Shown: in pieces, positions 20,955-37,653 of the stretch
Layout of the letters: each line of letters opens with the position of its first letter
Numbering within the stretch: the first letter of the stretch is position 1
Assembly: GCA_903825355.1 (NCBI GenBank)
Contig: CAIKAH010000055.1
Span: 1,353-65,352 of the forward strand
Direction: 5' to 3'
DNA: 64,000 nt
Origin: an uncultured bacterium
GTDB lineage: Bacteria > Babelota > Babeliae > Babelales > RVW-14
Made by a program: the position numbers and the translations under genes
Notes under the pieces: generated by a model
Told to the model about the DNA's origin: nothing
Databases searched by the model: none
Seen by the model: only the letters and a program-made list of their open reading frames with translations

Positions 20955-20969
20955 CGTAAAGGAGTTTAT

Positions 20970-21614
20970 ATGAATATTGTATACAAAGGGTTATTCACAC
21001 TCAGTCTCTTAAGCAGTAATTGTTTTGCAGTAGATAAACTTAGCTCACTTTCGGACCGATCATCCTGCGCTAGCAGCCAATCGCTAGCATCTATGATGGA
21101 AGATGTGCCAGGAACACCATGCTGCTTTCCGGAACCGTCGCCGGTCTGCAATGATAGCAGTACGGCTCAGACAACTGTTTATCTAGTGAATAACACGGAA
21201 TTCACAATTGATATATATGATATAACAACAGCGAAAAGAATTTATATATCACCTACTACCGAACTCACAGACGCCCAGAAATTTATCTGTTACGGAAAAG
21301 ATCCTACTGTGCAGTTAAGTTCTAATGATTATCATCTAATATACCAGCTATCGCTTGTAGGAAGCTTTGTCGTGCTTACTATCACCAATGCTACCCCATT
21401 GCAGGAAAGCATAGAATTAGAAGAAAAAGACACCGAAGATGAATCTAAAGACGGTTTATCTGAGCTACCTTCTAAAGATGAAATTTCACGCAAATTAGGC
21501 GTATCTACCCCAGCAGGAAGCTGGTCCCCACTACCAGGCTCTCCTGTCATACGAGGATGGTCTCCAGCCAGTGGAAGCACGCAAATACTCCGACGAGGCT
21601 GGTCTCCCCAATAA
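20970..21614 (+). CDS. secreted hypothetical protein with a C-terminal triple (S/G)WSP motif
   Basis: GGAG SD, signal peptide (LLSSNCFA/VD), an acidic linker. The C-terminus reads AGSWSPLPGSPVIRGWSPASGSTQILRRGWSPQ. Confidence 0.6.
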   Translation: MNIVYKGLFTLSLLSSNCFAVDKLSSLSDRSSCASSQSLASMMEDVPGTPCCFPEPSPVCNDSSTAQTTVYLVNNTEFTIDIYDITTAKRIYISPTTELTDAQKFICYGKDPTVQLSSNDYHLIYQLSLVGSFVVLTITNATPLQESIELEEKDTEDESKDGLSELPSKDEISRKLGVSTPAGSWSPLPGSPVIRGWSPASGSTQILRRGWSPQ

Positions 21615-21656
21615 AGACCTTGTAACTTGAAAAAAGTTCTTTTGATATAAAGGGTT

Positions 21657-23546
21657 GTGTTGATTCATCGTATTACTGTAAGTGTTTCCATCATCTTTGC
21701 TATTACTCTTGGTCTTGCCACCGTGCTGATAGAAAAAGATTGGGTAGATTTTGCAGCGCTTGATATTTACACTATCGCACAACCCTCTATCGTTCTTGAT
21801 GATGAGGGAGCAATCATTGCAAAATTCGAATTAGATAAACGAGCCCCCATCGCCTTTGATAAACTACCTAAAACCCTTATTCAGGCTTTTGTAGCAGCAG
21901 AAGACCATAGTTTTTTTACGCATAGTGGCATTTCTGCTCGTGGTATTGTACGCTCTGCATTTGTTAATCTTATGCATGGTAAAGTAAAACAAGGGGCAAG
22001 CACCATTACACAACAAATTGCTCGCCTGATGTTTTTGTCGTACGAACGCACTTGGTTTAGAAAAATTCAAGAAGTATTTATTGCTATACAGCTAGAACGA
22101 CAGCTCTCTAAAGAACAAATTCTAGAAATTTATCTTAATAATATCTACTTTGGTCGCGGTATTTATGGCGTAGAGGCTGCCTGTCGCCGTTTATGGAATA
22201 AGCCACTCCAAGAACTTACACTCCCTGAAGCAGCGACGCTGGCCGGTGTTGCAGCATCTGCGCGCTTATATTCGCCACTTAATGCCCCAGGAAGTGCTAC
22301 CAAACGCCGCAACCTGATTTTGCAAAGCATGCTAAAACTTAATTTCATTACGCCAGATGAATACAAAAACGCTATCGCTAGCAAAATGGCAATCAACGAT
22401 TTTGCACCAGGCAATCCTATTCGTATGTACACCCAAGAATGGATTAGACAATGGGCAGAACAGACGTTTGGTAAAGATGTCCTCTACCAAAAAGGCCTAA
22501 AAATTAAAACTACCATCAACACACCTACACAAGAACATGCAGAACAAGCATTTAGCGATGTCGTCCATAAATTACGCATTAGATTAGGCGATAAATTAAA
22601 TGGCGGGCTCATTAGCCTTGAGCCAAGCACTGGCAAAATTAAAGCAATGATTGGGGGCTATGATTTTAGACAGTCTCAATACAACCGAGCCATGCAGGCT
22701 GAACGCCAAATCGGTTCAACATTCAAGCCTATTCTCTACTCTCTTGCCATGCGAGCCGGTATTGATATGGACAGTGTTTTTATTGATGAACCCATCGAAA
22801 TGCAAATGCCTAATGGCAGCATATGGCGCCCCATGAACTGGGATCATAAATTTAATGGCCCCATGACACTAGCACGTGCCATTACCAAATCAGTTAATAC
22901 CATTTCCATTAAATTATTCTTAAAAATTAGTGGTTCTTATGTTGCACCGTGGAGTCGCCAATTTGGTATTACTCGTCATTTAACCGAATACCCATCTGCT
23001 GCACTTGGTACAGCTGAGGCAACAGTAGAAAAAAATGCTGCAGCATTCAACGTTTTTGCTAATAATGGCATATATGTTAAACCCTACCTCGTTGAGTGGG
23101 TAAAAGACGAGCATGGGAATAAAATTTTCGAAAGCGCCATAAGCAGAAAACGCATTCTTGATGCACGCCTATGCAGCCGTATGGTAAACCTTCTAGAACT
23201 ACGAATGCTAAGCGCACAACGTCAATATGGTAAAAATTGGCTTTCATCTCAATCTATTGGTAAAACGGGATCTACTAATGGCGCTAGCACTACCTGGTTT
23301 GTGGGGGCTACTCCTACACTTACCACCGCCCTTTATATTGGCTGTGATGATAATACCCCGATGGGCAGCAGCCTACTAGCAAGCACTACTGCTTTTCCAA
23401 TTTGGCACCGTTTCTATAAACAACTGCCAGCAACAAGAAAGCATTTTTACAAAGACCCTTCCCTTAACGAGTACTACGTTAATTGGATCACCGGAGAACC
23501 TGCAGCAAATAAATATGAAGCTGATGTAATTACCTTGCTTCGCTAA
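21657..23546 (+). CDS. mrcA: class A penicillin-binding protein (glycosyltransferase + transpeptidase)
   Basis: GT51 motifs EDHSFFTHSGIS, GASTITQQ, RKIQE. Transpeptidase motifs STFKP (SxxK), SVN (SxN), KTGST (KTG). N-terminal TM anchor, GTG start. Confidence 0.9.
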   Translation: MLIHRITVSVSIIFAITLGLATVLIEKDWVDFAALDIYTIAQPSIVLDDEGAIIAKFELDKRAPIAFDKLPKTLIQAFVAAEDHSFFTHSGISARGIVRSAFVNLMHGKVKQGASTITQQIARLMFLSYERTWFRKIQEVFIAIQLERQLSKEQILEIYLNNIYFGRGIYGVEAACRRLWNKPLQELTLPEAATLAGVAASARLYSPLNAPGSATKRRNLILQSMLKLNFITPDEYKNAIASKMAINDFAPGNPIRMYTQEWIRQWAEQTFGKDVLYQKGLKIKTTINTPTQEHAEQAFSDVVHKLRIRLGDKLNGGLISLEPSTGKIKAMIGGYDFRQSQYNRAMQAERQIGSTFKPILYSLAMRAGIDMDSVFIDEPIEMQMPNGSIWRPMNWDHKFNGPMTLARAITKSVNTISIKLFLKISGSYVAPWSRQFGITRHLTEYPSAALGTAEATVEKNAAAFNVFANNGIYVKPYLVEWVKDEHGNKIFESAISRKRILDARLCSRMVNLLELRMLSAQRQYGKNWLSSQSIGKTGSTNGASTTWFVGATPTLTTALYIGCDDNTPMGSSLLASTTAFPIWHRFYKQLPATRKHFYKDPSLNEYYVNWITGEPAANKYEADVITLLR

Positions 23547-23628
23547 CGACTAGCCTTTTCATTTTTTGTATTCCAGGTATGGTTGATATTACAATCTTTT
23601 TTGTTCAACCATCACCTAAGAGGTCTGT

Positions 23629-25371
23629 ATGTTTGTTGTGCCGCTTTTCACTCAACTACTTACCAAACGTGATAAACGCGAACTCGCCCTACTCCTCCTT
23701 GCCTCCATGCTAGTTTCGCTTATCGAGACTATTGGGGTGTCAGCACTTATGATCTTTGTCAGCATCTCAACTAATCTAACTATCATTCAAAACAACGCGT
23801 ATTTCAGGTATTGGTTTCGCGTATTAGCATTTAAAGAGCCTAGTAGTTTTGTTATCTGTTTTGGTTTTTTACTCATTATTTTTTATTTTCTCCGCGCACT
23901 CATTAACGTAGCACACATTTATTATCTCAATCGGTTTGCACAAATGCGGCAATACGATTTTGCGAGCAAAGCATTTGCCCATTTTCTCAAATTGCCTTTT
24001 GGCGACTTCGCGCTCAAAAACAACGCTACAGTTGCCCATTTAATCAATACAACCTCGATGCAGATTACGCACGTTATAAGTGGAATACTAGCCATCTTAG
24101 CTGAGAGCTCAACTATCATTGCTATTTACGCCATGCTCTTTTATGTAAATTGGAAAATGACGTTAATCCTGACACTTTTACTATCTGTAAAAGTCTTTGT
24201 AATCATTAAAACATTTTCACACCGCATAACAGCTGCTGGTAAACAGTTACAAGGTTTTTCTCTTGCTCGTGATAAAAAGTATCAGCAAGTATTTGGCAAC
24301 TACAAATTTATAAAATTACTTAGTAACAACCAACAGCATACTGAGATATTTAATACTAATGCTCATGGATTTGCGCGTGCAAATAATATCAACATGGTCT
24401 GGCAATCACTCCCCAGATTTATTCTTGAGACAATAGGTTTTTGTATGCTAATTGGCGTTATTATGTACGTCTTATTTCGTTATAACAACGCGCATTTTGT
24501 TCTTCCTATTGTCTCTATGTATGCCCTAGCATTTTATCGGTTCTTACCTTCAATTACCAAAATTTTAACCAGCTACAACCAAATCGCATTTAATAAACAT
24601 GCTATTAAGCCTTTTCTCGCTTATCTTGAAACACGAACAGAACAACTCTCGTCAAACCCTATTGTATTCAATACGGCGATAAGCTTGGCAAATATTAATT
24701 TCAGCTATATACCGAATAAACCGATATTAAACAATGTATCTTTACACATTCAGAAAGGTGAAAAAATTGGATTTATTGGCGAAAGTGGCGCTGGGAAAAC
24801 CACATTAATAGATATTTTGGTAGGGCTACTTCCTGTAAGCAGCGGCAGTCTATTCGTCGATAATACCATCATCGACTCTGTTACCATTAAAGCTTGGCGA
24901 CAGCAAATTGGTTATATACCACAACATATTTATCTATTTGATGGAACAGTAGCAGAAAATATTATTTGCGGGCGAACTGCTGATGAAACACAAATTATAC
25001 AGGTACTCAAACAAGCCCGTCTCTACGATTTAATTATGGAAAAAGGAGGACTACAGGCCCATATTGGCGAAGCTGGTATTCAGTTGAGTGGAGGACAGCG
25101 ACAACGCCTTGCTATTGCTCGTGCGCTCTACGGCAACCCAGGGGTTTTAGTCCTTGATGAAGCAACTTCATCGCTTGATGAAGCTAATGAAGAACATATT
25201 ATGCAAGAAATCTATGACCATGCCACCGACAAAACGCTTTTTATTATTGCTCATCGCCTTAGCACCATCAGCCGGTGTGACCGTGTATTTAAAGTTGAAG
25301 ACGGAAAAGTCTTAGAAGTAAGCCTTGCCTCCGTACTACGTAACTTAGCCCCTCTCCAGCACCAAGCTTAA
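23629..25371 (+). CDS. ABC exporter, fused permease-ATPase (MsbA-like)
   Basis: Six N-terminal TM helices, Walker A GESGAGKTT, signature LSGGQRQRLAIARAL, Walker B LVLDEATSSLD. Confidence 0.88.
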   Translation: MFVVPLFTQLLTKRDKRELALLLLASMLVSLIETIGVSALMIFVSISTNLTIIQNNAYFRYWFRVLAFKEPSSFVICFGFLLIIFYFLRALINVAHIYYLNRFAQMRQYDFASKAFAHFLKLPFGDFALKNNATVAHLINTTSMQITHVISGILAILAESSTIIAIYAMLFYVNWKMTLILTLLLSVKVFVIIKTFSHRITAAGKQLQGFSLARDKKYQQVFGNYKFIKLLSNNQQHTEIFNTNAHGFARANNINMVWQSLPRFILETIGFCMLIGVIMYVLFRYNNAHFVLPIVSMYALAFYRFLPSITKILTSYNQIAFNKHAIKPFLAYLETRTEQLSSNPIVFNTAISLANINFSYIPNKPILNNVSLHIQKGEKIGFIGESGAGKTTLIDILVGLLPVSSGSLFVDNTIIDSVTIKAWRQQIGYIPQHIYLFDGTVAENIICGRTADETQIIQVLKQARLYDLIMEKGGLQAHIGEAGIQLSGGQRQRLAIARALYGNPGVLVLDEATSSLDEANEEHIMQEIYDHATDKTLFIIAHRLSTISRCDRVFKVEDGKVLEVSLASVLRNLAPLQHQA

Positions 25372-25377
25372 GTAAAA

Positions 25378-25406
25378 AGCCCCGCCAGAAACCAGCGGGG
25401 CTTTTT
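25378..25406. terminator. bidirectional rho-independent terminator between convergent genes
   Basis: AGCCCCGC (25378-25385) / GCGGGGCT (25395-25402), 9-nt loop, with an A-run upstream and a T-run downstream. Confidence 0.8.
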
Positions 25407-25433
25407 ACATTCTTTAAACACAAATCTAACGAG

Positions 25434-26603
25434 TTAAGAAGCAACTTCAGCTACAGACGCAACTGCTCGTTGCTCATCATCAAAAGCAACAAGCATTTCT
25501 TTTTCAAGAGCACTAGCTGCTCGTTTATATTCATTAGTATTAAGCTTAATTACTTCCTTCTCTTCATCGGTAAGATAAGTATTAACAGTATTAATCCATA
25601 GACGGAACAAGGTATAAACTGCTGCGGCACCCAGTGTCCATTTTGCAACAGTAACAGCTTTATCAAGGGCTGTTTGAACTGTTTCTGTATTTTTTACTTT
25701 TACATAAGCAGGCGTAAATACCTTATCTTTAGTGAAATTCCAAACAACCCCGCCAAGCCCCATAGCCGCTAATAGCATAAGTTCGTTATTTTTAAACTCT
25801 TTGTAGAGCCCTTCTACCTTAAGCAAAAATACTTCTGGTACGGTGTGAGCAATATAACCTCCTTTGCAACCAGTCTCTGCTGTATTGCGACGGAAATCAC
25901 GTTCATTGCGTAGAAATTCTTCAACTCCCGCATCAGAACGCTTGATTAACATAAAATACCTGCTCCAAAAATCAACATCTGCTTGAGATAGAGCTTCTGC
26001 AGAGAAAATTTGAAGTAATAACCATGGTTTTTCAGCTCGTGGTTGAATACCTTTGATAACAAAATAAGCTTGAAGCGCACGTAGTTGCTCTACGGTTGCC
26101 ACAGAAATAATCATCGGCATGCCAGCTACATACTCATCTTTAAAAAAGGTTCCGGTATACTCTTTTGCTTCAAGCAATCCTACCATCTGCATAGCATCTT
26201 CCAGAACAGCACTAATTGGTGCCTTCAACTTACGAAAACCATCAAATTTATGGTCAAATTGTTTTACATAATCAAAAAACGCTTGGTGGCGCAGTGGCTC
26301 CATATTAAGTAAATCATCTGCAGTTTTTACAGGCATAACTTTATTATTTAACTGCGGATAGCGCACCCCAAACTCAAAAATATAAAAGCCGCCCTTGCGA
26401 GGATCTGTAATCAAGGCTACTGGAGGAGCTCCCTTTTCAAGGGTAAAGCGCAATACTGGCTGATCACCTGCTTTAATCATCTCCTGAGCAGTAAGATGTT
26501 CCGGATTAAATACTGCATCTCTGCGCTGCGCAGCGTTTTCCTGTGCTACGACAAATGAAAATGAGGCTGCTAACAACAACCCGCTATTTCTTAGTATGTT
26601 CAT
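25434..26603 (-). CDS. secreted/membrane-associated hypothetical protein
   Basis: Signal peptide (LLLAASFSFVVAQ), two hydrophobic segments near the C-terminus. No recognised domain. Confidence 0.6.
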   Translation of the reverse strand: MNILRNSGLLLAASFSFVVAQENAAQRRDAVFNPEHLTAQEMIKAGDQPVLRFTLEKGAPPVALITDPRKGGFYIFEFGVRYPQLNNKVMPVKTADDLLNMEPLRHQAFFDYVKQFDHKFDGFRKLKAPISAVLEDAMQMVGLLEAKEYTGTFFKDEYVAGMPMIISVATVEQLRALQAYFVIKGIQPRAEKPWLLLQIFSAEALSQADVDFWSRYFMLIKRSDAGVEEFLRNERDFRRNTAETGCKGGYIAHTVPEVFLLKVEGLYKEFKNNELMLLAAMGLGGVVWNFTKDKVFTPAYVKVKNTETVQTALDKAVTVAKWTLGAAAVYTLFRLWINTVNTYLTDEEKEVIKLNTNEYKRAASALEKEMLVAFDDEQRAVASVAEVAS

Positions 26604-26819
26604 AAAACCCTCTTGTAAGTTGTATAATTACCTGCAAAGAGTATAGGGGAAAAAGATATTTTTTCATAATCAGACTTTAAAAGAATGTTTTTATTAACCC
26701 TGATTAGAAATTATTTTCTATCTGGATAATTAATACTCGGCCTCTCCTGAGAAAACAAACCCGCGCTTAAGCAAAGTAATAATATAAATCAAAATAGCCA
26801 GGAACTATCCCCTCCTCTT

Positions 26820-27461
26820 TTAATCCGTACACCTAGCAACCTTTCCTTTCCAGACAGGATTGATCCAACCCATTATCAAATCATCCTCTAGCGCACCTGT
26901 TTTACTAACTATTCTATTTTTTAATCGCCCTTCCTCGACAAAACCTACGCTGGTATACACTTTAATCGCACCTAGGTTAGAAGCCCGTACAAACAACTCC
27001 ACCCGAGCGACATCTGCATAGGCAACATCATCAAAGCATTCATCCTCAATCTTCCTTAAAAAGGTTGTCCACAATGCCGTCGCAACCCCTTTTCTAAACC
27101 AAGTAGGATGAGTAAGCGTTGTACCATCACGTAGCGTATGCCGAAGCGAATCAGGACCAGCACAAAACTTTGATACTGCGCCAATAATCATATCATCCGT
27201 ACACGCTACAAGCATTAAGCCTGATGTCAACGATTTATCAACCAGCTCAGCAACATATTCTTCTGTTATTTCTTCTGGTCGACGCGCCAAGCCTCCATCT
27301 ATGCCAGCTGTTGCTCGATACAACTCTAGCAAGCCCGCAACATCTTCTTTTACCACAGCCCGTACCACATAGGGAGATTCTGTTGCTATAGCTGTCGCAT
27401 TTATTTTCATCATTACACCTGTTAACAACATACCAATAACCACCATTTTAACCTTCATCAT
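26820..27461 (-). CDS. GNAT family N-acetyltransferase with a hydrophobic N-terminal extension
   Basis: GNAT C-terminal pattern (VELFVRASNLGAIKVYTSVGFVEEGRL). The N-terminus MMKVKMVVIGMLLTGVMMKINATAIA is signal-like. An internal start at M17/M18 (about 27413) is also possible. A 4-nt overlap couples it to the upstream Lrp gene. Confidence 0.65.
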   Translation of the reverse strand: MMKVKMVVIGMLLTGVMMKINATAIATESPYVVRAVVKEDVAGLLELYRATAGIDGGLARRPEEITEEYVAELVDKSLTSGLMLVACTDDMIIGAVSKFCAGPDSLRHTLRDGTTLTHPTWFRKGVATALWTTFLRKIEDECFDDVAYADVARVELFVRASNLGAIKVYTSVGFVEEGRLKNRIVSKTGALEDDLIMGWINPVWKGKVARCTD

Positions 27462-27928
27462 TTTAATCCTTCTTTAATAACCTCCGGAATATCTATAGCG
27501 CGTTCTTTGGGTACAGATAGCACAATAATTGTTCTTGTGCGCATAATGCCCGGGATTGATTTTATTCGTTCATTTAAAAAATAATCCAAATGTTTACTGT
27601 TCATACAGACCACTTTCAGCATGTAATCATCATCACCAGTCACATGCAAACATTCCAGCACCTCTGCTGCATTTTGCATCTGCTGGATAAATTCGGCTCT
27701 ATGCTGAGGATGCGCAAGCGTTACAAAAACCATAGCGGTCAAAGCAAAGCCTAGCTCCTGGTAATCAACCATAGCAGCATAACCCTGAATCACCTTGGCC
27801 TTTTCAAGTTTTTTGATTCGCTCCGTTATTGAGGGAATCGAAAGCTCACACTGTGCCGCAAGGTCAGTCAGCGTTGCTCGGCCATTTTTTAAAAGCTCAG
27901 ATAAAAGATTAAAATCTAATGCGTCCAT
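27458..27928 (-). CDS. Lrp/AsnC family transcriptional regulator
   Basis: LDALDFNLLSELLKNGRATLTDLAAQCELSIPSITERIKKLEKAKVIQGY (HTH_AsnC), followed by an RAM/ACT-like C-terminal domain. Confidence 0.9.
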   Translation of the reverse strand: MDALDFNLLSELLKNGRATLTDLAAQCELSIPSITERIKKLEKAKVIQGYAAMVDYQELGFALTAMVFVTLAHPQHRAEFIQQMQNAAEVLECLHVTGDDDYMLKVVCMNSKHLDYFLNERIKSIPGIMRTRTIIVLSVPKERAIDIPEVIKEGLK

Positions 27929-28087
27929 ACAAAAACTCCTTATTTTATAAACATATATTCATTGTATTTAAATATAAAATAAGTTCAAGTATTATTTTTA
28001 TATTGTATTTTAAGGCAAAATGAATTAACAATGTTAAAAATTGCTGTTTTATGCATTTCTGGCCTGTGGCCATTTTTTAAGCAGGAT

Positions 28088-28129
28088 TGCAGACTCAGGG
28101 ATGGCCTTGAAGACGGGCCTGAGTCTGCA
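28088..28129. repeat. perfect 12-bp inverted repeat with an 18-nt spacer
   Basis: TGCAGACTCAGG (28088-28099) and CCTGAGTCTGCA (28118-28129). It lies directly 3' of the truncated murJ copy (stop at 28139) and shares the CTCAGG/CCTGAG flavour of the dispersed repeat cores. Confidence 0.7.
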
Positions 28130-28138
28130 GATCTAACA

Positions 28139-29188
28139 TCATCGCTTTAAGAAATAGACGTTCACGCCAAACAATTTTCTGGTTGCAAACAGCAATCCAA
28201 TGGATCCTGCGGCCACAGCGATCGTGTACACCCAATAGCCAATGCCATCGGCAAGCATGCCTTGCGTGCCAGCAGGCAAAAAGTGAGACCCCAACTGAGC
28301 AACGGCATAAGCACTAAGAGCACAGAGCAGAATCTGGATCACATAGCGCATTAAGAAGCGCGCGTACATCCCCGCATGAAAATTAACGTGGTGCTTTACC
28401 TTCAATAGTGAAAAGAGCGTAATTGACATAGCAATTGCCGAAATACTATTTGCTGCAGCAATCCCATCCGCACCCCAGTAGTACATCCCCACCAAGTCAC
28501 ACCCAATATTGATACTTGCACACAGCGCCGCTGCCTTGGTTGCCGACCAGGTGTCTTTGAGAGCGTAGAACATACTCAGCAGCACTTTGTTCAAGCAGAG
28601 GAACAAAAGCCCCACGAGGTACAAAATCAAAATCACCCCCCCCTGATGAATCTGTTCGGGCGTTGCTTTACCGTTGAGCAGAAACTCAAAGAGCGGCTCT
28701 GCAGTGATAATTAAAAAAATAGTCGCAGGAATAATGACCCAAGTAACCAATTTGGTGACCTCCAGCAAGTAGAATTGCAGCCGACGTGGCGCGTACAGCA
28801 CCAAGCGCGAAAAATGTGGCAAAAGCACACTAGACAACGCTACAGCAAACATCCCCAGCGGAATATTCATAAACCGCGCGCCGTAATACAGCAGCGATAC
28901 CGACCCTTTTGGCAAGTACGAAGCAATGCTCCCACTAATGAACATGTTCAGCTCAAAAATACTGACCCCAAACAAGCATGGCAAAAACTTGGTGAGGACT
29001 GTTTTAAAAGCTGCTTTGGCGGCTGTATCGATAGGAGCAAAGGTAAATCCTTCTAGGCGTAGGCTGGAAGCTTGTCGAATGGGCGAAGTCCGAATAGAAC
29101 GAAAACAAGCGGGGCAAGCTTTACGTAATCCCTCTTTCTTGGCTCTTTGGCCGGCGGCGTTCAGAACTTGTGTTCTGTATTTCGACAA
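28139..29188 (-). CDS. truncated MurJ paralog (C-terminal lobe only); intact ORF, but possibly a pseudogene
   Basis: The last ~300 aa align without gaps to residues ~215-518 of the full MurJ (31988..33544) at about 90% identity. The first ~50 codons and the only available start (TTG 29188) come from dispersed-repeat sequence. The next in-frame ATG is well inside the homologous region. Confidence 0.6.
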   Translation of the reverse strand: MSKYRTQVLNAAGQRAKKEGLRKACPACFRSIRTSPIRQASSLRLEGFTFAPIDTAAKAAFKTVLTKFLPCLFGVSIFELNMFISGSIASYLPKGSVSLLYYGARFMNIPLGMFAVALSSVLLPHFSRLVLYAPRRLQFYLLEVTKLVTWVIIPATIFLIITAEPLFEFLLNGKATPEQIHQGGVILILYLVGLLFLCLNKVLLSMFYALKDTWSATKAAALCASINIGCDLVGMYYWGADGIAAANSISAIAMSITLFSLLKVKHHVNFHAGMYARFLMRYVIQILLCALSAYAVAQLGSHFLPAGTQGMLADGIGYWVYTIAVAAGSIGLLFATRKLFGVNVYFLKR

Positions 29189-29205
29189 GCTCAGGCTGAG
29201 CGTGA
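29057..29205. repeat. dispersed composite palindromic repeat, copy A (both arms present)
   Basis: The left arm AGCTTGTCGAATGGGCGAAGTCC (29069-29091) is the exact reverse complement of 33590-33612. The right arm is TTCAGAACTTGTGTTCTGTATTTCGACAAGCTCAGGCTGAGCG, with the core at 29181-29202. Confidence 0.8.
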
Positions 29206-29528
29206 TTCAAAATTCCTCATGGTTTCAAAAGAGGTCTAATTTTAGACCTGCAAAAGCCTATTTTGCAAAAACAACAAAGCCTTTTTACCTCTAGATCATA
29301 CAGTAAGGCTTTTGTAAATAAGGTGATTTTTCTGATAAACGCTAAGATTTAAGATTAGAAAAAATAACCCCGAGATATTACGTGCCAATCTTGCATTCAT
29401 CGATCCAGGGTAGAAATTACTCACTAAAAAAGTATTTTTTGAGCCTTTTATCCATTTTTTTGCTTTTTTAAAATATTCAAATAGAATAATAAATCTATAT
29501 TGGCTAATTATTGAAAATGGAGCCTGCC

Positions 29529-31094
29529 ATGAATAAGTACTCTTTAACACATCTAGTAGTTGGTTTTTTGCTAGCACTTGCTAGCACTACATCACTTGAT
29601 GGTGCCAAAAAAAATCTTCTAAAGCGTGAGCATTCTTCTAGTCCCGTCTTGGTTGAAAACCCATTATTAAAGCACCGCAGAGTCGCACCACCAGCAGATG
29701 AGCTTATCGATGCACCATTGACCATTCAACCAAGCACAAATACTTTACCTGCACGAACCACTGTTCTTATGCAGCCTGCGCCGGCGGCACCGCAAATAAC
29801 AATGCCAATATTTTCTCGAACAATGCATCGCGAAGCTGCGACCGTCAGAACAACAACTTCAGGTGCTGCAGTTATTGCTTCATTGCCAGCAACAGTTCCT
29901 ACTGTAACGAATCTCATTGAGGATACAAAAACAGGTAACGTCTTGGCAGTAAAACACTTACTAAGCTCTGGCGCAGACGTCAACCAGGTAGATGATGAGG
30001 GCTTTACGGCCTTAATATGGGCAACCTGCAAAGGACACCTAAAAATCGTCCGCCTCCTACTCGATGCAGGCGCTGACCCAAACGCCACTTCTCGCAAACA
30101 GCGGGTTACAGCTTATATGTACGCTCATTTCTACAAAAAAATAGCCATTGCTCGCAGTCTAAAAGAGCACATAGTGCGCCAGTGTGGTGACAACGAAGAG
30201 CTAGCCAGATCCATCATGATACAGCAAGAACTTGCACTGATAGAATCTAGAGGAGCACGCTCCACGAAAGCCAATCTCTGCCCCATATTAACGCAAGAAA
30301 TAGCTCCAGTAATTGCTCAGGTCAGCGCAAAAATGGGAGGGCCTGAACACTTCACTATCAAGTATGACAACTCAATATCGCCATCTACTTGCCCCGCAAC
30401 AGAGACCATTTTCATTACATCCCAAGTAATCAGACAGCTGCTGACAAATATTCCAGAAGGTAAAAAAGAACAGTATAGCGCTATTTTTGCTGACATAATT
30501 GCACACGAAATTGGTCATAACATTGATCCAGAGTGGCACCAAACCAAAGCGGTAATGGAAAACCGAAATACCTTTTTTAAAAAATTATTGTCCAGATTAA
30601 CTACCTTAAACCTCAGTGTTCCAGCTCTTCTCTTAGCACTTGCACACAGTGACACACATATCGAACTCGCAACAGCTGTTTTTACAGGAGCCATGTGCGG
30701 CTCGACAGCGCTAGTAGCACTTAACCAATTAAACAATCTTAGACTTCAACGTAAGTTAGAATACAACGCCGATCGTTTATCTTTAACGGGCGGAGAAGAT
30801 GTAGCTACCGCTCCCGCACGATGGGCTGAGCTATTCAAAAATGCAGAAAGGTACATGCACGACTTGATAAAAACAGATTGTGCTAACGCTCTCTCACAAG
30901 CGAAAGATGCTTTCGTACAAAAATCACCATCAATGCTTTGGGAAGCCACGAAAACAGCAGGACTTGCCGGCTGTAAGTGGCTTTATATGCACGGGCCAAA
31001 TTGGATTAGAATTCACCCTCATGATGAAAAACGCATTAAACACATTCAAAAACATGCTAAACTCATGACTGGGGCAGCGAATGCTGCCGAGTAA
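29529..31094 (+). CDS. secreted ankyrin-repeat + M48-family zinc metallopeptidase fusion protein
   Basis: ATG 29529 has GGAG 6 nt upstream (the ORF track starts at TTG 29511). Signal peptide (LVVGFLLALASTTSLDGA). Two ANK repeats (GNVLAVKHLLSSGADVNQVDDEGFTALIWATCKGHLKIVRLLLDAGADPNA). HEIGH at 30504-30518, two hydrophobic helices, EYNAD, and a C-terminal IHPHDEKRI. This is the HExxH / ExxAD / HPxxxxRI triad of M48 peptidases. Confidence 0.8.
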   Translation: MNKYSLTHLVVGFLLALASTTSLDGAKKNLLKREHSSSPVLVENPLLKHRRVAPPADELIDAPLTIQPSTNTLPARTTVLMQPAPAAPQITMPIFSRTMHREAATVRTTTSGAAVIASLPATVPTVTNLIEDTKTGNVLAVKHLLSSGADVNQVDDEGFTALIWATCKGHLKIVRLLLDAGADPNATSRKQRVTAYMYAHFYKKIAIARSLKEHIVRQCGDNEELARSIMIQQELALIESRGARSTKANLCPILTQEIAPVIAQVSAKMGGPEHFTIKYDNSISPSTCPATETIFITSQVIRQLLTNIPEGKKEQYSAIFADIIAHEIGHNIDPEWHQTKAVMENRNTFFKKLLSRLTTLNLSVPALLLALAHSDTHIELATAVFTGAMCGSTALVALNQLNNLRLQRKLEYNADRLSLTGGEDVATAPARWAELFKNAERYMHDLIKTDCANALSQAKDAFVQKSPSMLWEATKTAGLAGCKWLYMHGPNWIRIHPHDEKRIKHIQKHAKLMTGAANAAE

Positions 31095-31122
31095 TAGCTT
31101 TTTTAATTCAATGCCTGAGAGC

Positions 31123-31656
31123 TCATATCGCTAATACTGAATACCCCCAAGGTCCATATTGATACTCCATAGCCGCCGGGGCGCAAGCACCAAGCCAATG
31201 GCGCTGGCCACGCTGCTTATCACCCCCGCAAGGAATAACAGCCGCAGCCTTGCAGTCATCACATTTAATAGCAAATTCACGCGCTTGCCGCTGCATAAAT
31301 TCATCTATTTCTTCAACCGCTCCTACTTGATACACCGTTTTCATCACAACTAGAGGGGCTACACAAATTTTCAAATCGCTAGCTTCGCAGGCAAGCCCAG
31401 AAAGTACTTTATAAAATAAGGCTAATAAAACATGTGCATAAGATGTGGGTCGCATGCAGCTCGTACAGATAACTGTTGCTTTTCTACCTGGAAATCGTTT
31501 GTTTTCAAAATCCCAACAAGTATTCATAATTTCCTGACTTTCCGCGCCAGCCACCTCAAGCCGTTCCAAATACCATTGCGGATGGGGTGATATTGAAAAA
31601 CTGCTTAGGCTGCCCATACAACAAATTATAAATGCAAAAATTGCAAAACGTTTCAT
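31123..31656 (-). CDS. secreted Cys-rich protein, paralog of 31676..31945
   Basis: Signal peptide (FAIFAFIICCMGSLSSFS), about 12 Cys. Shares the pattern CxxC-x(~27)-VAP-x(~30)-CxxCK-x(2-5)-PC with the neighbouring small ORF. Confidence 0.6.
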   Translation of the reverse strand: MKRFAIFAFIICCMGSLSSFSISPHPQWYLERLEVAGAESQEIMNTCWDFENKRFPGRKATVICTSCMRPTSYAHVLLALFYKVLSGLACEASDLKICVAPLVVMKTVYQVGAVEEIDEFMQRQAREFAIKCDDCKAAAVIPCGGDKQRGQRHWLGACAPAAMEYQYGPWGYSVLAI

Positions 31657-31675
31657 CCCTTACCCCCCTCTTGTC

Positions 31676-31945
31676 CTACAAACTTTCTCCCTTATCCTCT
31701 ATCCGCTGCTCTATTACTGCATTCCAGCATGGCACTTTTTTGCATCCAGGACATTCTAAATGAAAGCCATTTGCTAGAGCAAGCATCGCACTATCTAGCG
31801 GCCCTCTGGTCATAAACTTCATTTTTAGTGCCTCTATCACTACTGGAATCAAATGCGGTGCAACATACTTGGCTAATTCTATCGCTAGTGAAACAAATAG
31901 CTCAACGCCATCAACTTTTCTTGCACACATACTGCACTCTATCAT
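31676..31945 (-). CDS. small four-Cys protein without a signal peptide
   Basis: 89 aa: CSMC ... YVAP ... CPGCKKVPC. Lies 43 nt downstream of murJ on the same strand. No clear SD. Confidence 0.5.
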   Translation of the reverse strand: MIECSMCARKVDGVELFVSLAIELAKYVAPHLIPVVIEALKMKFMTRGPLDSAMLALANGFHLECPGCKKVPCWNAVIEQRIEDKGESL

Positions 31946-31987
31946 GTTTACAGCTGGCAGGTAAAATCTCTAGTTACTTATTCATTT

Positions 31988-33544
31988 TTACCGCTTTAAA
32001 AAATACACATTTACGCCAAATAGCCGCCGGGTCACAAACAGCAACCCAATAGCACCAGCAGCAATAGAGATGGTATACACCCAGTAGCCAATGCCAGCGG
32101 CAAACATGCCTTGCGCTGCGATAGGCAACACTTTGCAAGCAAGATACGCAAGAACATAAGCGCCCAAGGCACATAGCAGAATTTGGGCCACATAGCGCAT
32201 TAAGAACAACGCATATGGCTTGAGGTGAAAATTAACGTGGTGCTTTACTTTCAAAAGAGAAAAAAGCGTAATTGACATAGCAATTGCCGAAATACTGTTA
32301 GCAGCTGCGATCCCATCGGCACCCCAATAGTACATTCCCACCAAGTCACACAAAATATTTATACTCGCACACAGCGCTGCCGCTTTGGTCGCAGACCAGG
32401 TATCTTTAAGAGCATAAAACATACTGAGCAGTACTTTGTTCAAACAGAGGAACAGCAAGCCAACCAAGTACAAAATTAAAATCATGCCACCCTGATGAAT
32501 TTGATCGGGCGTAGCCTTGCCATTGAGCAGAAATTCGAAAAGCGGCTCAGCCGTGATAATTAAAAATATAGTTGCAGGAATAATAACCCAGGTAACAAGC
32601 TTGGTTACTTCAAGCAGGTAAAAGTGGAGGCGACGCGGGGCATATAATACCAAGCGAGAAAAGTGTGGCAGCAGCACACTGGAAAGGGCCACTGCAAACA
32701 TACCAAGGGGAATATTCATGAATCGAGACCCATAGTACAGCAACGAAACCGAACCTTTTGGCAAGTACGAAGCAATGCTCCCACTGATGAACATGTTAAG
32801 TTCAAATATGCTTACGCCAAACAGACAGGGCAAAAATTTAGTTAGCACTGTCTTAAATGCAGCTTTTGCCGCCGGATCAATGACGCCAAACGTGAACCCT
32901 TGCTTAAAATACATAAATAGGTGCAGCAAAAACTGCACAAAGGCCCCAAAAATAATCCCTCCACACAAATACGTTGCTGGAAGCTGATAGCCCAAACACA
33001 ACAACAACGTGCCTATAAAAATCACATTCCAGAGAGGCGTGCCCAGCGCAGGAATAAAGAAATGATTTACTGAATGCAAAGCCCCACCAAGGAGCGCACA
33101 GCTGGAAATAAAGAGCAGGAATGAAAATAAAATTTGTACAAACGGGATGGCATAGCCAATTTGCTCAGCAGAGAACCCTGGTGCAACCACATTGATAACC
33201 CAATCGGCTTTGAGTAACACAAAACCGTACATCAGGAGAATGATGCCTTCAAAGAACAAAAATGAAAGCGTCATGAGCCCACTGGCCTCGCGCTTGTTAT
33301 TTTCTTTGACTGTTTTGACAATAACCGGCACAAACGAAGCGCTCAGCGCGCCTTCGGCAAAAACATGCCTGAAAAAATTGGGAATGCGAAATGCTGCAAT
33401 AAATGCATCAGATACGGCACCTACGCCAAAATAGCGTACCATTAAAAATTCTCGCATTACGCCAAGAATACGGCTAAAAAAAGTCAGAATAGCTACCTGA
33501 ATAGTCTTACGGACAATTGATCGTTTGCTGAGCTGCTGACTCAT
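31988..33544 (-). CDS. murJ: lipid II flippase MurJ (MviN)
   Basis: 518 aa, about 14 TM. N-terminal FSRILGVMREFLMVRYFGVG..SDAFIAAFRIPNFFR is the MurJ/MviN signature. Confidence 0.92.
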   Translation of the reverse strand: MSQQLSKRSIVRKTIQVAILTFFSRILGVMREFLMVRYFGVGAVSDAFIAAFRIPNFFRHVFAEGALSASFVPVIVKTVKENNKREASGLMTLSFLFFEGIILLMYGFVLLKADWVINVVAPGFSAEQIGYAIPFVQILFSFLLFISSCALLGGALHSVNHFFIPALGTPLWNVIFIGTLLLCLGYQLPATYLCGGIIFGAFVQFLLHLFMYFKQGFTFGVIDPAAKAAFKTVLTKFLPCLFGVSIFELNMFISGSIASYLPKGSVSLLYYGSRFMNIPLGMFAVALSSVLLPHFSRLVLYAPRRLHFYLLEVTKLVTWVIIPATIFLIITAEPLFEFLLNGKATPDQIHQGGMILILYLVGLLFLCLNKVLLSMFYALKDTWSATKAAALCASINILCDLVGMYYWGADGIAAANSISAIAMSITLFSLLKVKHHVNFHLKPYALFLMRYVAQILLCALGAYVLAYLACKVLPIAAQGMFAAGIGYWVYTISIAAGAIGLLFVTRRLFGVNVYFLKR

Positions 33545-33566
33545 GCGACTCCCCTTAAAGAATTTA

Positions 33567-33630
33567 GGCCCGCTCTTTTTAGCCCCAATGGACTTCGCCC
33601 ATTCGACAAGCTCAGGGTGTGAGCGGGATA
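33567..33630. repeat. dispersed composite repeat, copy B (in the lolD-murJ spacer)
   Basis: GGCCCGCTCTTTTTAGCCCCAATGGACTTCGCCCATTCGACAAGCTCAGGGTGTGAGCGGGAT, with the core at 33602-33627. Confidence 0.8.
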
Positions 33631-33654
33631 AAAAATAGACGCTGATAGCTTAAA

Positions 33655-34341
33655 TTATTTAGGGGGCTGGTCAAGCAAAAGAGCACCGTGCTCAAGCACA
33701 TAAACTATCTCCATGCGACGGTAGACTGCAGCGTCATGCGAACAGATAACCACACCCATTCCCTCGGTTTTATTTGCTTCAAGCAAAATATCAACCACCA
33801 ACTGAGCATTGTCTTCATCTAAATTGCCGGTAGGCTCATCGGCGAGCAAAAATGCTGGCTTATTGAAAAGCGCACGCGCAAGAGCAACGCGTTGTTGCTG
33901 CCCCCCAGAAAGTTCTGGCGGGAAGGCCTGTGCTTTATCACTCAGTCCAATCAGCTGTAGCAGTGCATGTGCTCGCTCCTTGCATAGATCATCAGAAAGC
34001 CCTTTTACACGCCCAGGGAGCATAATATTTTGAATGATGGGCAGTTCATTAACCAAATAATGAGCCTGAAAGGCAAACCCTATCGTATTTTGCAAAAACT
34101 CACGCCCCAAAGATGCAATCGATATATCATTAAGAAGGACCTCTCCTTGAGTGGGAACATCCAAACCACCAAGCAGGTGCAAAAGCGTAGACTTACCACT
34201 CCCTGAAACACCACGAATAGCATAGGTTTTCCCTTGCTGAAAAGAGCAGGATATCTTTTCAAAAACGGGTCCCGCCTGTGCAGAGGATTCATATATTTTT
34301 TTTACCGACTTGAGGACTAGATTTTTTACTAAATTGGCCAT
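33655..34341 (-). CDS. ABC transporter ATP-binding protein (LolD/MacB/FtsE-like subfamily)
   Basis: Walker A GVSGSGKST, signature LSGGQQQRVALARAL, Walker B LLADEPTGNLD. About 228 aa. No permease gene is adjacent. Confidence 0.85.
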   Translation of the reverse strand: MANLVKNLVLKSVKKIYESSAQAGPVFEKISCSFQQGKTYAIRGVSGSGKSTLLHLLGGLDVPTQGEVLLNDISIASLGREFLQNTIGFAFQAHYLVNELPIIQNIMLPGRVKGLSDDLCKERAHALLQLIGLSDKAQAFPPELSGGQQQRVALARALFNKPAFLLADEPTGNLDEDNAQLVVDILLEANKTEGMGVVICSHDAAVYRRMEIVYVLEHGALLLDQPPK

Positions 34342-34399
34342 AGGATCTCTTTCATTATGCCTGCATTTTATGCCTTACATTCGCATAAGCTACTAAATC

Positions 34400-34429
34400 T
34401 TGCAACCCAAATCCAAAATCTTCTACTAT
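34400..34429 (+). promoter_or_regulatory. candidate sigma-70 promoter for lon
   Basis: TTGCAA (34400-34405), 18-nt spacer, TACTAT (34424-34429), about 125 nt upstream of the lon ATG, which has a strong GAGGGGAGGGGG SD. Confidence 0.3.
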
Positions 34430-34554
34430 GACAATAGGACACCGCAGCAAACCTTGCAGGTTGTGCCTTCTACCAAAGAATACCATTTTTTGGCAGCATG
34501 GTACGCGGGCAATCAATATAATCTGCGCATAATTTATGAGGGGAGGGGGAACTT

Positions 34555-36915
34555 ATGTCACTTCAAAATCGCGACCATAACGCCGAAACAGATATACCTA
34601 ACATCTTACCAGTGGTACCAACCATAGATGTAGTTGTATTTCCGCACATGGTAGTACCACTACTTATCTTGGACGAAAAAATTATTAAAGGCGTTGAGGC
34701 TGCACTGCAGGGGAATAAAAAGATTTTACTCCTGGCTGCACGCCAACAAACGGCAGACTATCATGGTCCGATTGGAATCCACGATTTGTATCAAATGGGC
34801 ACTGTAAGCACCATCATGCGTGTTATGCACTTACCTGATGGCGGAATTAAAGTGCTAACACAAGGAACATGCAAAGCGCATGTAACTGAAGTTATTTCAG
34901 ATCAAGAGTTATTGCAAGCACGTGTCAATGTTATTAGCCCTGAAGAAGGACTCCAAGTAGAACAAGATGTGATTGATCTGCATATCAAAAATTTATTAGC
35001 TATTGTTGAACGTATGGCGAGTAGTGGTCGTATGTTTAGCCAAGACTTTCAAGTAATTTTAGCCCAAATTCAAGACCCTGAGCGCATCGCAGACTTCATT
35101 CTCTCTCACCTCAATCTTAATGTTGCCCAAGCACAGGTACTTTTAGAAAAAGAAAACATCGCGCTTCTACTCGAAGGTATTTACAACTTCTTGCATACAG
35201 AATATGAAATGAACTCTATGCAAGAACGCATTCGTAGCAATGCACGTGATTCTATCAATAAATCACAACGAGAATATTACCTGCGTGAACAACTGAAGGC
35301 TATTCAAAAAGAACTTGGCGAAGAAGGCGATATTGAAATTGATGACCTCAAAGAAAAGATTGATAAGCTTGCTCTTTCGCCAGAAGCGCGCGTGGAGGTT
35401 CAACGTCAAATGCGCCGCTTAGAGAAAACGCCACCAGATTCAATGGAAGCAACGGTAATTCGTAACTACCTTGAGTGGGTAGTGGCAATGCCATGGGGCC
35501 ATCAAACTAAAGATCATACCAGCATTGAGCATGCAAAATCAGTGCTCGACAAGCACCACTATGGGCTAGAAGAGGTCAAAGACCGCATTCTAGATTTCTT
35601 GTCAGTACGTTTTTTAAAACAAGATTGCCACACACCAATTTTATGTTTATTTGGTCCACCTGGCGTTGGCAAAACATCATTGGGTCAATCAATTGCAGAA
35701 TGCCTAGGTAGAAATTTTTTTAGAGTTTCGCTTGGCGGCGTATACGATGAATCAGAAATTCGTGGCCACCGCCGCACCTATGTTGGTGCTATGCCAGGTC
35801 GCTTTATTCAAGCTGTCCGCAAAGCAGCTAGCATAAACCCTGTCTTGGTAATCGATGAAATCGACAAAATTGGCATGTCAAACCGAGGAGACCCATCAGC
35901 AGCACTCCTAGAAGTGCTTGACCCTGAACAAAATGCTGATTTTTATGACAACTACCTAGGAGTACATTTTGATTTATCTAAAGTAATGTTTATTGCCACC
36001 GCCAACGATTTAGGCAGCATCCCTGGCCCATTACGCGACCGCATGGAAATTATTCAAATTTCTGGCTATACAGAAGAAGAAAAATTAGAAATTGCGCGTA
36101 CCCATTTAGTACCAAAAGCAGTACGCAATTGCGGCCTTGAAGGTAAAACTTTTGAACTTGCCGACAGCACGCTCCGCATGGTAATTCATAATTACACCCG
36201 TGAAGCAGGGGTACGTGATTTAGAACGCAACATCCAAAAACTTTGCTCTAAATTTGCACGTGCATTGGTTGAGACCAATAAGAGCCCCATTATTACAACC
36301 GAAAATCTACACGAATATCTTGGCCCATCAAAAATCAGCAGTGAAACAATTACTCTGGGGCATAAAATTGGGGTTACCAACGGCCTTGCATGGACACCAT
36401 ATGGTGGCGATGTGCTGCAAGTAGAAGCGGTGCTGATGCCTGGCAGCGGGAAACTCTTACTTACCGGGCAACTTGGTGATGTAATGAAAGAATCAGCACA
36501 AGCTGCCATGACATATGCAAAATCGCATGCAGATATTTTTGGGATTGGAGCAAAATTCTTTACAGAATATGACCTCCACATTCACCTGCCCGCGGGAGCC
36601 ATTCCAAAAGATGGCCCATCTGCAGGCATAACCTTGCTATCATCAATCCTCTCGGCATACACAAATCGTGCAATTAACGGCGAATTTGCAATGACAGGGG
36701 AGCTCAATTTACGTGGAGAAGTACTACCGATTGGTGGATTAAAAGAAAAAATCTTGGCCGCTAAACAGCATGGCCTTAAAAATATCATTATTCCTAAATC
36801 AAACCAAAAGGATCTTGCCGGCATGGATAAACTCTTTGAAGGCTTACAGATTCTATTTGTCGATAATGTCAGCGAAGTGCTTGATCACGTGCTGATGCCT
36901 CACATAATACGCTAA
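34555..36915 (+). CDS. lon: ATP-dependent Lon protease
   Basis: LON N-domain (LPVVPTIDVVVFPHMVVPL), AAA+ Walker A GPPGVGKTS, proteolytic site PKDGPSAG with downstream Lys. Confidence 0.96.
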   Translation: MSLQNRDHNAETDIPNILPVVPTIDVVVFPHMVVPLLILDEKIIKGVEAALQGNKKILLLAARQQTADYHGPIGIHDLYQMGTVSTIMRVMHLPDGGIKVLTQGTCKAHVTEVISDQELLQARVNVISPEEGLQVEQDVIDLHIKNLLAIVERMASSGRMFSQDFQVILAQIQDPERIADFILSHLNLNVAQAQVLLEKENIALLLEGIYNFLHTEYEMNSMQERIRSNARDSINKSQREYYLREQLKAIQKELGEEGDIEIDDLKEKIDKLALSPEARVEVQRQMRRLEKTPPDSMEATVIRNYLEWVVAMPWGHQTKDHTSIEHAKSVLDKHHYGLEEVKDRILDFLSVRFLKQDCHTPILCLFGPPGVGKTSLGQSIAECLGRNFFRVSLGGVYDESEIRGHRRTYVGAMPGRFIQAVRKAASINPVLVIDEIDKIGMSNRGDPSAALLEVLDPEQNADFYDNYLGVHFDLSKVMFIATANDLGSIPGPLRDRMEIIQISGYTEEEKLEIARTHLVPKAVRNCGLEGKTFELADSTLRMVIHNYTREAGVRDLERNIQKLCSKFARALVETNKSPIITTENLHEYLGPSKISSETITLGHKIGVTNGLAWTPYGGDVLQVEAVLMPGSGKLLLTGQLGDVMKESAQAAMTYAKSHADIFGIGAKFFTEYDLHIHLPAGAIPKDGPSAGITLLSSILSAYTNRAINGEFAMTGELNLRGEVLPIGGLKEKILAAKQHGLKNIIIPKSNQKDLAGMDKLFEGLQILFVDNVSEVLDHVLMPHIIR

Positions 36916-36931
36916 ACGTATTTCTTTTTTG

Positions 36932-36968: not shown

Positions 36969-37032
36969 AAACCAATATCAAGCTTATTTCAAAGCTCTAG
37001 CAAAAGGTATAAACATACTAGACTGATGCGAT

Positions 37033-37130
37033 TGCCCCGCTTTTTCTCGTCCTATCGGACTTTGCGCATTCAGAACTTGCATTCTGTATTTCACCTTGCG
37101 GTATTCTTCGACAAGCTCAGGGTGAGCGAG
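37033..37130. repeat. dispersed composite repeat, copy C
   Basis: TGCCCCGCTTTTTCTCGTCCTATCGGACTTTGCGCA + TTCAGAACTTGCATTCTGTATTTC... + TTCGACAAGCTCAGGGTGAGCG (core at 37107-37128). The 61-aa ORF 36984..37169 is its spurious translation. Confidence 0.8.
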
Positions 37131-37260
37131 GATAATTTTATTACTGAAAGCCAATTTAGATAGTTTCAAAAAAGATCTAATATCTAATTATCTAATCTCG
37201 AAAAAAAGGTTATTGACACCCAACTCAAAAGTATTCGCTATATAAAAATATAATACACAA

Positions 37261-37635: not shown

Positions 37636-37653
37636 AAGTATTCATTCCCCTTA

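Follow-up and report, generated by a model that had tools for sequence, protein, structure and literature searches.

A gene fragment that encodes only the C-terminal part of the lipid II flippase MurJ, lying with an open frame beside the complete gene, raises the question of whether a half-flippase is being maintained or whether the fragment is a relic of recombination. The first-pass annotation of the window (the whole stretch of 64,000 nucleotides analysed here) left both readings standing: selection on the short copy, or divergence that built up in a full-length and perhaps foreign murJ before a recent truncation. Based on the comparisons described below, we judge it likely that the short copy, here termed murJ', is an orphaned 3' fragment of a sister-lineage murJ left by recent recombination.

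Layout of the two murJ copies

The two copies and their extents are as follows.

28139..29053, minus strand: murJ', the truncated copy; 304 codons plus stop, homologous to murJ codons 215-518 (TM7-14)
31988..33544, minus strand: murJ, the full copy; 518 codons, 14 TM segments, Pfam MurJ family PF03023

The open reading frame containing murJ' comprises 349 codons (28139-29188, minus strand). Both copies lie on the same strand as direct repeats 3,849 nt (~3.8 kb) apart, with murJ' downstream of murJ; nothing else is duplicated between or beside them. They align without gaps (28139-29053 against 31988-32902, which encodes residues 215-518 of the full protein), and the 304 codons of murJ' contain no gap, stop or frameshift. 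The hydropathy profile places the start of murJ homology at residue 215, past the sixth peak (193-211), and murJ' thus comprises TM7-14 only. The initial description of a truncated copy keeping TM7-14 with its frame intact is therefore confirmed by the ungapped 304 codons and the agreement of the hydropathy peaks.

The short ORF matches the PF03023 profile at 163.5 bits (cut-off 27.4) over positions 178-439 of 451, and the full protein aligns to solved MurJ chains over residues 12-485. The window belongs to a Dependentiae bacterium (candidate phylum TM6, Babeliales-like), and these are also the names borne by the closest database proteins to its MurJ. Compared with the MurJ/MviN lipid II flippases of the MOP superfamily (PF03023; 5T77, 6CC4 and 7WAW), murJ' is clearly MurJ sequence, with 163 bits over TM7-14 and the conserved YYxxR motif region of TM8 included. 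It differs from them in having no start signal of its own and in lacking TM1-6, so that the two-lobed cavity cannot be formed; the complete 14-TM architecture, in which an N-lobe (TM1-6) and a C-lobe (TM7-12) enclose one cavity, is absent from murJ'. The N-lobe of MurJ contributes the essential residues Arg18, Arg24 and Arg52, as well as half of the central cavity.

Divergence between the copies and among full-length orthologues

Pairwise comparison of murJ' and murJ revealed 197 differences in 912 nt, of which 144 fall at third, 37 at first and 16 at second codon positions. The DNA identity of 78.4% agrees with the earlier estimate of roughly four-fifths, and the proteins are 89.5% identical. 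A recount over the 120-nt stretch 28441-28560 (versus 32290-32409) reproduced the 19 nucleotide differences given by the first-pass annotation. Its figure of about eight replacements over the first ~215 residues was right in that they are few; the exact count is nine. Altogether 32 residues are replaced, 23 of them within residues 441-507 at the TM13-14 end. The Nei-Gojobori method gave a pS of 0.672, a pN of 0.072 and an omega of 0.045, far from 1, with a dS of ~1.7, so synonymous sites are near saturation. Given that non-synonymous sites make up 693 of the 912 (~76%) and yet account for only ~25% of the differences, the synonymous excess is not due to chance. A search for gene conversion between the copies found no tract of high identity, every 90-nt window being 64-90% identical.

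We compared both copies with full-length murJ DNA from L004 (P0001, 96% amino-acid identity), L040 (P0002, 91%), L006 (P0003, 86%) and L008 (P0005, 79%). Pair statistics over a common set of 299 codons were as follows.

murJ versus L040 (two full-length orthologues): pS 0.659, pN 0.071, omega 0.047
murJ' versus murJ: pS 0.676, pN 0.067, omega 0.041
murJ' versus L040: pS 0.637, pN 0.054, omega 0.039

Against the murJ of L004, murJ' has a saturated pS of 0.70. By these sequence measures, murJ' behaves like a further orthologous allele, diverged to about the same depth as the P0002 lineage. Since its dN/dS equals that of full-length orthologues, the low omega provides no evidence that a half-flippase is maintained. 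Most likely, the signature was inherited from selected full-length genes and reflects ordinary divergence between lineages. The pattern of purifying selection seen at first reading is thus real (omega 0.045) and does not show selection on the fragment as such, given that full-length orthologues yield the same value. More generally, if a gene fragment and the intact copy beside it come from different allelic lineages, a very low dN/dS between them is no proof of selection on the fragment, because the comparison then measures selection on their full-length ancestors.

In a neighbour-joining tree of all nucleotides, murJ' clusters with L040, the carrier of the P0002 lineage's murJ, and not with the full copy plus L004 (bootstrap 90%). 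The same pairing received 79% from codon positions 1+2, 69% from position 3 and 61% from amino acids, and shared derived nucleotides number 39 for murJ' with L040, 28 for murJ' with murJ and 18 for murJ with L040. The tree, together with the orthologue distances between lineages, places murJ' in an allelic lineage different from that of the intact copy. The base composition is also distinct: GC3 is 0.56 in murJ', 0.48 in the resident C-lobe and 0.36 on average in the genes of the window (sd 0.05), and synonymous AT-to-GC changes exceed GC-to-AT changes (52 versus 30, p = 0.02). A protein search with the fragment and a scan of JGI metagenome loci yielded neither a closer donor allele nor a murJ-AsnC-GNAT arrangement; the best match to murJ' is P0002, at 90% amino-acid and 81% nucleotide identity.

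We propose that the last 912 nt of this allele evolved within a full-length, functional flippase gene of a sister Dependentiae lineage, which would be about as distant as the carrier of P0002.

The junction of murJ' and its age

L004 is the closest relative, and its backbone genes differ from those of the window by a dS of 0.25-0.68, typically ~0.4. Its gene order is lon-lolD-murJ-89aa-150aa-Ank/M48-386aa-ABC-PBP; that of the window is the same plus murJ', AsnC and GNAT, which lie between Ank/M48 and a 389-aa gene. The DNA of the two runs collinear between 36975 and 29053, and collinearity resumes from 26692 downwards. The synteny break at 29052/29053 coincides exactly with the onset of murJ' homology, and the boundaries are the same in L053, which is from a sister sample. 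The elements at and around the junction are the following.

26693..29052, unstranded: window-specific block of 2,360 bp, comprising murJ', its 3' flank, AsnC and GNAT; absent from L004 and L053
29053..29190, minus strand: copy A of a small palindromic repeat (terminal inverted repeat of 12 bp, GAGCTTGTCGAA / TTCGACAAGCTT); truncated at 29053, at the join to murJ'
33568..33625, plus strand: palindromic repeat copy B, in the lolD-murJ interval; inverted, with 23 nt exactly shared with copy A
37034..37140, plus strand: palindromic repeat copy C, downstream of lon

Where the window has the 2,360-bp block, both L004 and L053 carry an unrelated 97 nt, and the 97 nt of L004 gave no significant match to the 2.36-kb block of the window (score 32; shuffled maximum 34). 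No 23-nt exact match such as that between copies A and B is expected by chance. The 97 nt of L004 hold the 3' end of the repeat (CAGGGTGAGCGGGG..TAATTTT), as copies B and C do, and the repeat is complete in L004 and L053; copy A lacks this end. Given its presence in L004 and in copies B and C and its absence from copy A, the junction in the window is derived. As judged from this comparison, an insertion or replacement cut the repeat, leaving the window arrangement as the derived state. A derived junction must be younger than the split of the window from L004, at ~0.2 dS per lineage. Since it post-dates that split, while murJ' and murJ differ by a dS of ~1.7, the two copies had diverged almost to their present extent, as full-length genes, before the truncation took place. 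The idea of a full-length and possibly foreign murJ, truncated only recently, is accordingly supported by the orthologue-like dN/dS, the tree position and the derived junction.

To the right, identity to L004 is 82-84% over the first 300 nt and ~91% beyond, with no clear switch point; to the left, mosaic blocks are present that have no clear link to the murJ' junction event.

An old tandem duplication, kept in the lineage of the window and deleted in that of L004, would explain why the copies are same-strand direct repeats at a spacing of 3,849 nt. However, the deletion in L004 would have to begin at the first base of murJ' and recreate the 3' end of the repeat. Furthermore, the duplication would be restricted to murJ, the truncated copy groups with the gene of another lineage, no stretch of gene conversion joins it to its neighbour, and a neutral frame would have stayed intact over a dS of 0.2 with a probability of only ~0.001. 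We regard such a history as extremely improbable. In the explanation that we favour, the sister-lineage piece would recently have entered the variable region downstream of the resident murJ through illegitimate joining, probably at one side only and with homology as the anchor, and this would have cut the palindromic repeat and replaced ~97 nt.

Neighbouring genes and the mosaic locus

Downstream of murJ' and between the two copies lie the following genes.

27458..27928, minus strand: Lrp/AsnC-family regulator (profile match)
26820..27461, minus strand: GNAT acetyltransferase, overlapping the AsnC stop codon
29511..31945, unstranded: variable island between the copies, with the ankyrin/M48 protein, a 177-aa ORF and an 89-aa ORF
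29511/29529-31094, plus strand: secreted ankyrin/M48-peptidase protein, within the variable island

The 177-aa and 89-aa ORFs of the island lie on the minus strand and match no family. The island is shared with L004 and is not present in the more distant L006 and L008, and different ankyrin genes follow murJ in each lineage; the region downstream of murJ thus appears to be a hot spot for the turnover of ankyrin-type, effector-like genes. Between the window and L004, the blocks 33100-32350, 31900-31000 and 30100-29500 are 97-100% identical, against 65-88% in adjoining blocks, and the 89-aa and 177-aa genes have a dS of 0.02 against 0.4 for the backbone. Along murJ itself, codons 149-407 differ from L004 by a pS of 0-0.12 and codons 38-111 by 0.55-0.79, whereas codons 408-518, like the DNA at 29053-29500, show backbone-level and not recent divergence. 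On this evidence, murJ itself is a recombination mosaic against L004. It seems that DNA exchange between these uncultured, host-associated Dependentiae and related lineages is frequent enough to leave mosaics on the kilobase scale. A tRNA scan of 20000-40000 and an Rfam scan of 26000-34000 gave no matches, and family matches revealed no site-specific recombinase among the ORFs between or beside the copies.

Homology of the AsnC module to the relatives L035 and L039 begins at 28016, so that murJ', together with its 122-nt flank, may form a unit distinct from AsnC-GNAT. In L035, AsnC-GNAT adjoins the same ABC-PBP genes, and the AsnC relative in L039 shows backbone-like divergence (pS 0.37) and has an upstream neighbour other than murJ. 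Given this divergence and the synteny in L035, AsnC-GNAT may be of native origin, and the block may have been put together from more than one source. Among GTDB species genomes, AsnC relatives were limited to matches of <=36% identity from unrelated phyla, and none of the Babeliales relatives in a large protein collection has murJ directly upstream. Two ORFs considered as murJ-AsnC links, one upstream in L039 and one downstream in L040, proved unrelated to each other and to the window.

These neighbours bear on a second version of the relic, in which murJ' is the resident's own C-lobe pushed downstream. Here the ancestral order would have been lolD-murJ-AsnC-GNAT-389aa-ABC. A donor segment, murJ(3' part)-89aa-177aa-Ank/M48, would have recombined by homology within the N-lobe of murJ and, through an illegitimate join at codon 215, rebuilt an intact murJ with its current, foreign C-lobe and left the native one as a non-functional relic. 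Such a displacement would put murJ' where the 3' end of a native murJ belongs, directly upstream of AsnC-GNAT-...-ABC-PBP, and it accords with AsnC-GNAT lying beside the same ABC-PBP genes in L035 and with the pS of 0.37 for AsnC in L039. It would also suit a resident murJ whose codons 149-407 are nearly identical to those of L004 and whose codons 38-111 are as diverged as murJ', together with ankyrin genes that vary by lineage downstream of murJ, and its mechanism is documented for the orphaned 3' regions of Rhs/T6SS loci (PMC5361080). On the other hand, the flanking backbone differs from L004 by a dS of ~0.4 only, against a pS of 0.70 between murJ' and the L004 murJ, so that murJ' does not look like the backbone's own allele. 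Backbone-level divergence of murJ codons 408-518 and of 29053-29500 further suggests that the island was already present in the common ancestor, and murJ' is an outlier in GC3 while AsnC (0.38) and GNAT (0.35) are typical of the window. We therefore think a displaced native tail unlikely.

The evidence, including divergence profiles along the right flank and the murJ N-lobe, leans, without being decisive, towards foreign import from a P0002-like lineage into an L004-like arrangement. This preference is based on the tree position and GC3, and on the finding that parts of the island and the junction-side DNA have diverged to backbone level and not recently. Under this import, AsnC and GNAT would probably have arrived together with murJ'. 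We infer both the direction of transfer, foreign fragment rather than displaced native tail, and a single event for murJ' and AsnC-GNAT. In either version, the fragment is a by-product of recombination.

Time since release and alleles in other assemblies

Of 206 columns that are invariant in five full-length orthologues, murJ' has changed two, one of them the junction codon, and in this genome it carries no surplus of replacements. In simulations of unconstrained change, two or fewer such differences arose with a probability of 0.58 at 0.005, 0.15 at 0.01 and 0.004 at 0.02 substitutions per site, and the frame stayed open with a probability of 0.70 at 0.01 and 0.001 at 0.2 substitutions per site. 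Thus, the fragment was either stranded less than ~0.015 substitutions per site ago or kept by selection, and we consider selection the less likely alternative. The undamaged state of murJ' would then be owed solely to its very recent stranding. That events of such an age have taken place at this locus is shown independently by the blocks of near-identity to L004.

The murJ' sequence was found in at least four metagenome assemblies. Another assembly has the identical 349-aa product annotated among the same neighbouring genes, and contigs from two further samples match the window at 99.9-100%. The fourth assembly may carry a damaged allele at the following run.

28636..28643, minus strand: G8 homopolymer (C8 on the plus strand) inside murJ'; the full copy has no such run

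In that assembly, the gene (P0165) is called as 163 aa with its start just past the G8 run, and 1,602 nt separate AsnC from the Ank/M48 start, compared with 1,601 in the window. The P0165 allele may therefore contain a +1 frameshift at the run. L054 seemed to have lost 56 nt of murJ', but its scaffold has a gap of 10 N at this point, where the two copies are most alike, and the apparent deletion was therefore discounted as population evidence.

Coding potential of the murJ' reading frame

The frame of murJ' extends upstream into the repeat and is followed by a hairpin.

29054..29188, minus strand: 5' extension of the ORF, 45 codons upstream of murJ homology; intergenic repeat DNA
28087..28133, minus strand: strong hairpin just after the murJ' stop, with a 12-bp stem (z = -3.8) and no U-tract

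The equivalent of 29054-29188 in L004 has two 1-nt indels that break the frame and is not coding, and the frame of the 45-codon extension is thus not conserved. The first reading had placed the TTG start in repeat-derived sequence, and this codon, at 29188, indeed sits in the small palindromic element. It is preceded by GAATCACGCTCAGCCTGAGC, in which no Shine-Dalgarno-like motif is found, and an in-frame TGA lies six codons upstream; the ORF offers no other start upstream of TM7. By comparison, murJ, AsnC, GNAT and the 389-aa gene all have AAGGAG-like Shine-Dalgarno motifs, and murJ' lacks a translation start of its own with a ribosome-binding site. Upstream of the junction, matches to the promoter consensus on the minus strand are weak; this DNA could nevertheless hold a promoter that transcribes murJ'. 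The 122-nt 3' flank that contains the hairpin (28017-28138) matched nothing in any relative fetched. Most likely, murJ' is not translated into a working protein; we infer its non-expression and non-functionality from these features.

A functional stand-alone C-lobe, with TM7-14 translated from the TTG at 29188 and kept by purifying selection, for example to partner or regulate MurJ or to act as a transporter itself, would be consistent with several of the observations. These are the intact frame over 304 codons, the mere two changes at orthologue-invariant columns, and the recurrence of the sequence in at least four assemblies. In addition, the terminal branch of murJ' carries five amino-acid changes to 40 nucleotide changes, similar to 4/35 and 2/28 in full-length genes (Fisher p = 0.75). 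However, inheritance from full-length genes together with recency fully accounts for this signature. Moreover, the N-lobe is missing, the start lies in non-coding repeat DNA with no Shine-Dalgarno motif, L004 and L053 are without the fragment, and one assembly has a possibly frameshifted allele (P0165). Among relatives, no further C-lobe standing alone came to light in 5.8 billion proteins or in JGI metagenome contigs; the short matches were fragments at contig edges with 43-53% identity. The suggestion that a half-flippase is maintained hence gained no positive support, given the absent Shine-Dalgarno motif, the non-coding extension and the absence of isolated C-lobes from the searches, and we hold it to be very improbable. 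A functional murJ' would be without precedent as an isolated C-lobe of MurJ, but none of the results requires it.

Relation to known systems

Rhs, CDI and T6SS effector loci contain orphaned 3' regions, in which a divergent 3' fragment is stranded beside an intact copy (PMC5361080). Homology-facilitated illegitimate recombination (HFIR), in which a conserved gene serves as the homologous side of the exchange and the other end joins illegitimately, is described for Acinetobacter, S. pneumoniae and P. stutzeri (PMC5361080; PMC3240628). Like the Rhs/T6SS orphans, murJ' has an abrupt start of homology at an internal codon beside unrelated DNA, a derived junction, a mosaic locus and effector-like neighbours. 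It differs from them in that murJ is a housekeeping cell-wall flippase and not a polymorphic toxin, and in that there is no array of successive orphans. Moreover, the flanks of murJ' gave no clear homologous anchor, the searches turned up no donor, and its host is an uncultured member of the Dependentiae, which are not known to be competent or to have another route of DNA uptake. With these differences, the sequence features of murJ' fit orphaned 3' fragments as a class already known to arise from illegitimate recombination, whether or not homology facilitates it. Compared with pseudogenes and gene remnants of host-associated, genome-reduced bacteria, murJ' is likewise a non-functional remnant beside intact genes, in a lineage of intracellular lifestyle rich in ankyrin-repeat proteins, but it is not decaying in place, being young, undamaged and of a different allelic lineage.

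Duplicate gene ends also occur where prophages or islands have integrated into protein genes, as at E. coli icd with e14 or phage 21. There, as here, part of the 3' end is found a second time, displaced from the full gene but on its strand; the two differ mostly at synonymous sites because both evolved within working genes. Unlike the icd case, the DNA between the murJ copies and near it contains no integrase, excisionase or tRNA, the duplicated part (912 nt at 78% identity) has no att-like identical core, and L004 has the island without the partial copy.

It is also most doubtful that murJ' is kept as an expressed 8-TM modulator of MurJ or as a silent cassette donating sequence to murJ. The cassette idea would fit the mosaic murJ alleles in the clade and the concentration of replacements in TM13-14.

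Blocks of 97–100% and 65–88% identity alternate sharply when window positions 29500–33450 are aligned with positions 10100–14050 of the closest relative, L004, and these blocks extend into murJ itself. Between the window and L004, dS is 0.02 for the 89-aa and 177-aa genes, against ~0.4 for the backbone. Given this identity mosaic and the low dS of the two genes, sequence comparison indicates that homologous exchange is frequent among uncultured Dependentiae lineages. The variable island between the partial copy murJ' and murJ contains the following gene.

29511–31094, (+), gene for a secreted protein that combines ankyrin repeats and an M48 peptidase domain (HExxH)

Both ends of this gene are 99–100% identical to L004, whereas its middle (~30100–31000) is just 65–88% identical. 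Moreover, the ankyrin genes adjoining murJ differ from relative to relative (L006 and L040). In sequence terms, it looks like an effector-type gene undergoing diversifying exchange.

A family of small palindromic repeats, MITE/REP-like, has three window copies around lon-lolD-murJ. Its features include a 12-bp terminal inverted repeat and a 23-nt exact match between copies, and a comparison with Rfam gave no match for the family.

Copies of the palindromic repeat family
29053–29190, (-), window
33568–33625, (+), window
37034–37140, (+), window
9933–9976 and 14340–14530, L004

These copies are situated at edges of variable segments and may be recombination hot spots.

The third-position GC of murJ (31988–33544; 0.47) is the highest among all 50 long ORFs of the window (mean 0.36, s.d. 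0.05), and that of murJ' (28139–29053) is 0.56. In all four relatives, murJ reaches 0.40–0.49, above the mean of the window, which serves here as the yardstick in place of the relatives' own backbones. The sister-sample contig L053 (JGI 3300020196), from a strain otherwise identical to L004, carries a sole murJ (878–2423) with an 11-nt deletion at nt 685–695 (codons 229–232). The deletion yields two ORFs of 231 aa and 243 aa, split near the lobe boundary, and could be either a genuine disrupted allele or an assembly error.

The metagenome scaffold L054 has a 10-N gap at 894–903 (window 28385–28450), coinciding exactly with the stretch of highest murJ'/murJ similarity (~90%), which shows that short-read assembly was confused by the duplicate. 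Three further contigs (L001–L003) all end within the ankyrin/M48 gene. In addition, murJ' contains a G8 homopolymer at 28636–28643, a run that the resident murJ lacks. A 163-aa gene call for murJ' in assembly ERZ1426837 (P0165) starts immediately downstream of this run, on a contig 1 nt longer; this allele may represent a slippage frameshift at the run.

Elsewhere in the window, a 157-nt direct repeat (47063–47219 and 48772–48928) shows 73% identity, with one copy in each of two neighbouring ORFs of similar size, which are probably tandem paralogues.

46792–48471, (-), ORF with one repeat copy
48531–50174, (-), ORF with the other repeat copy
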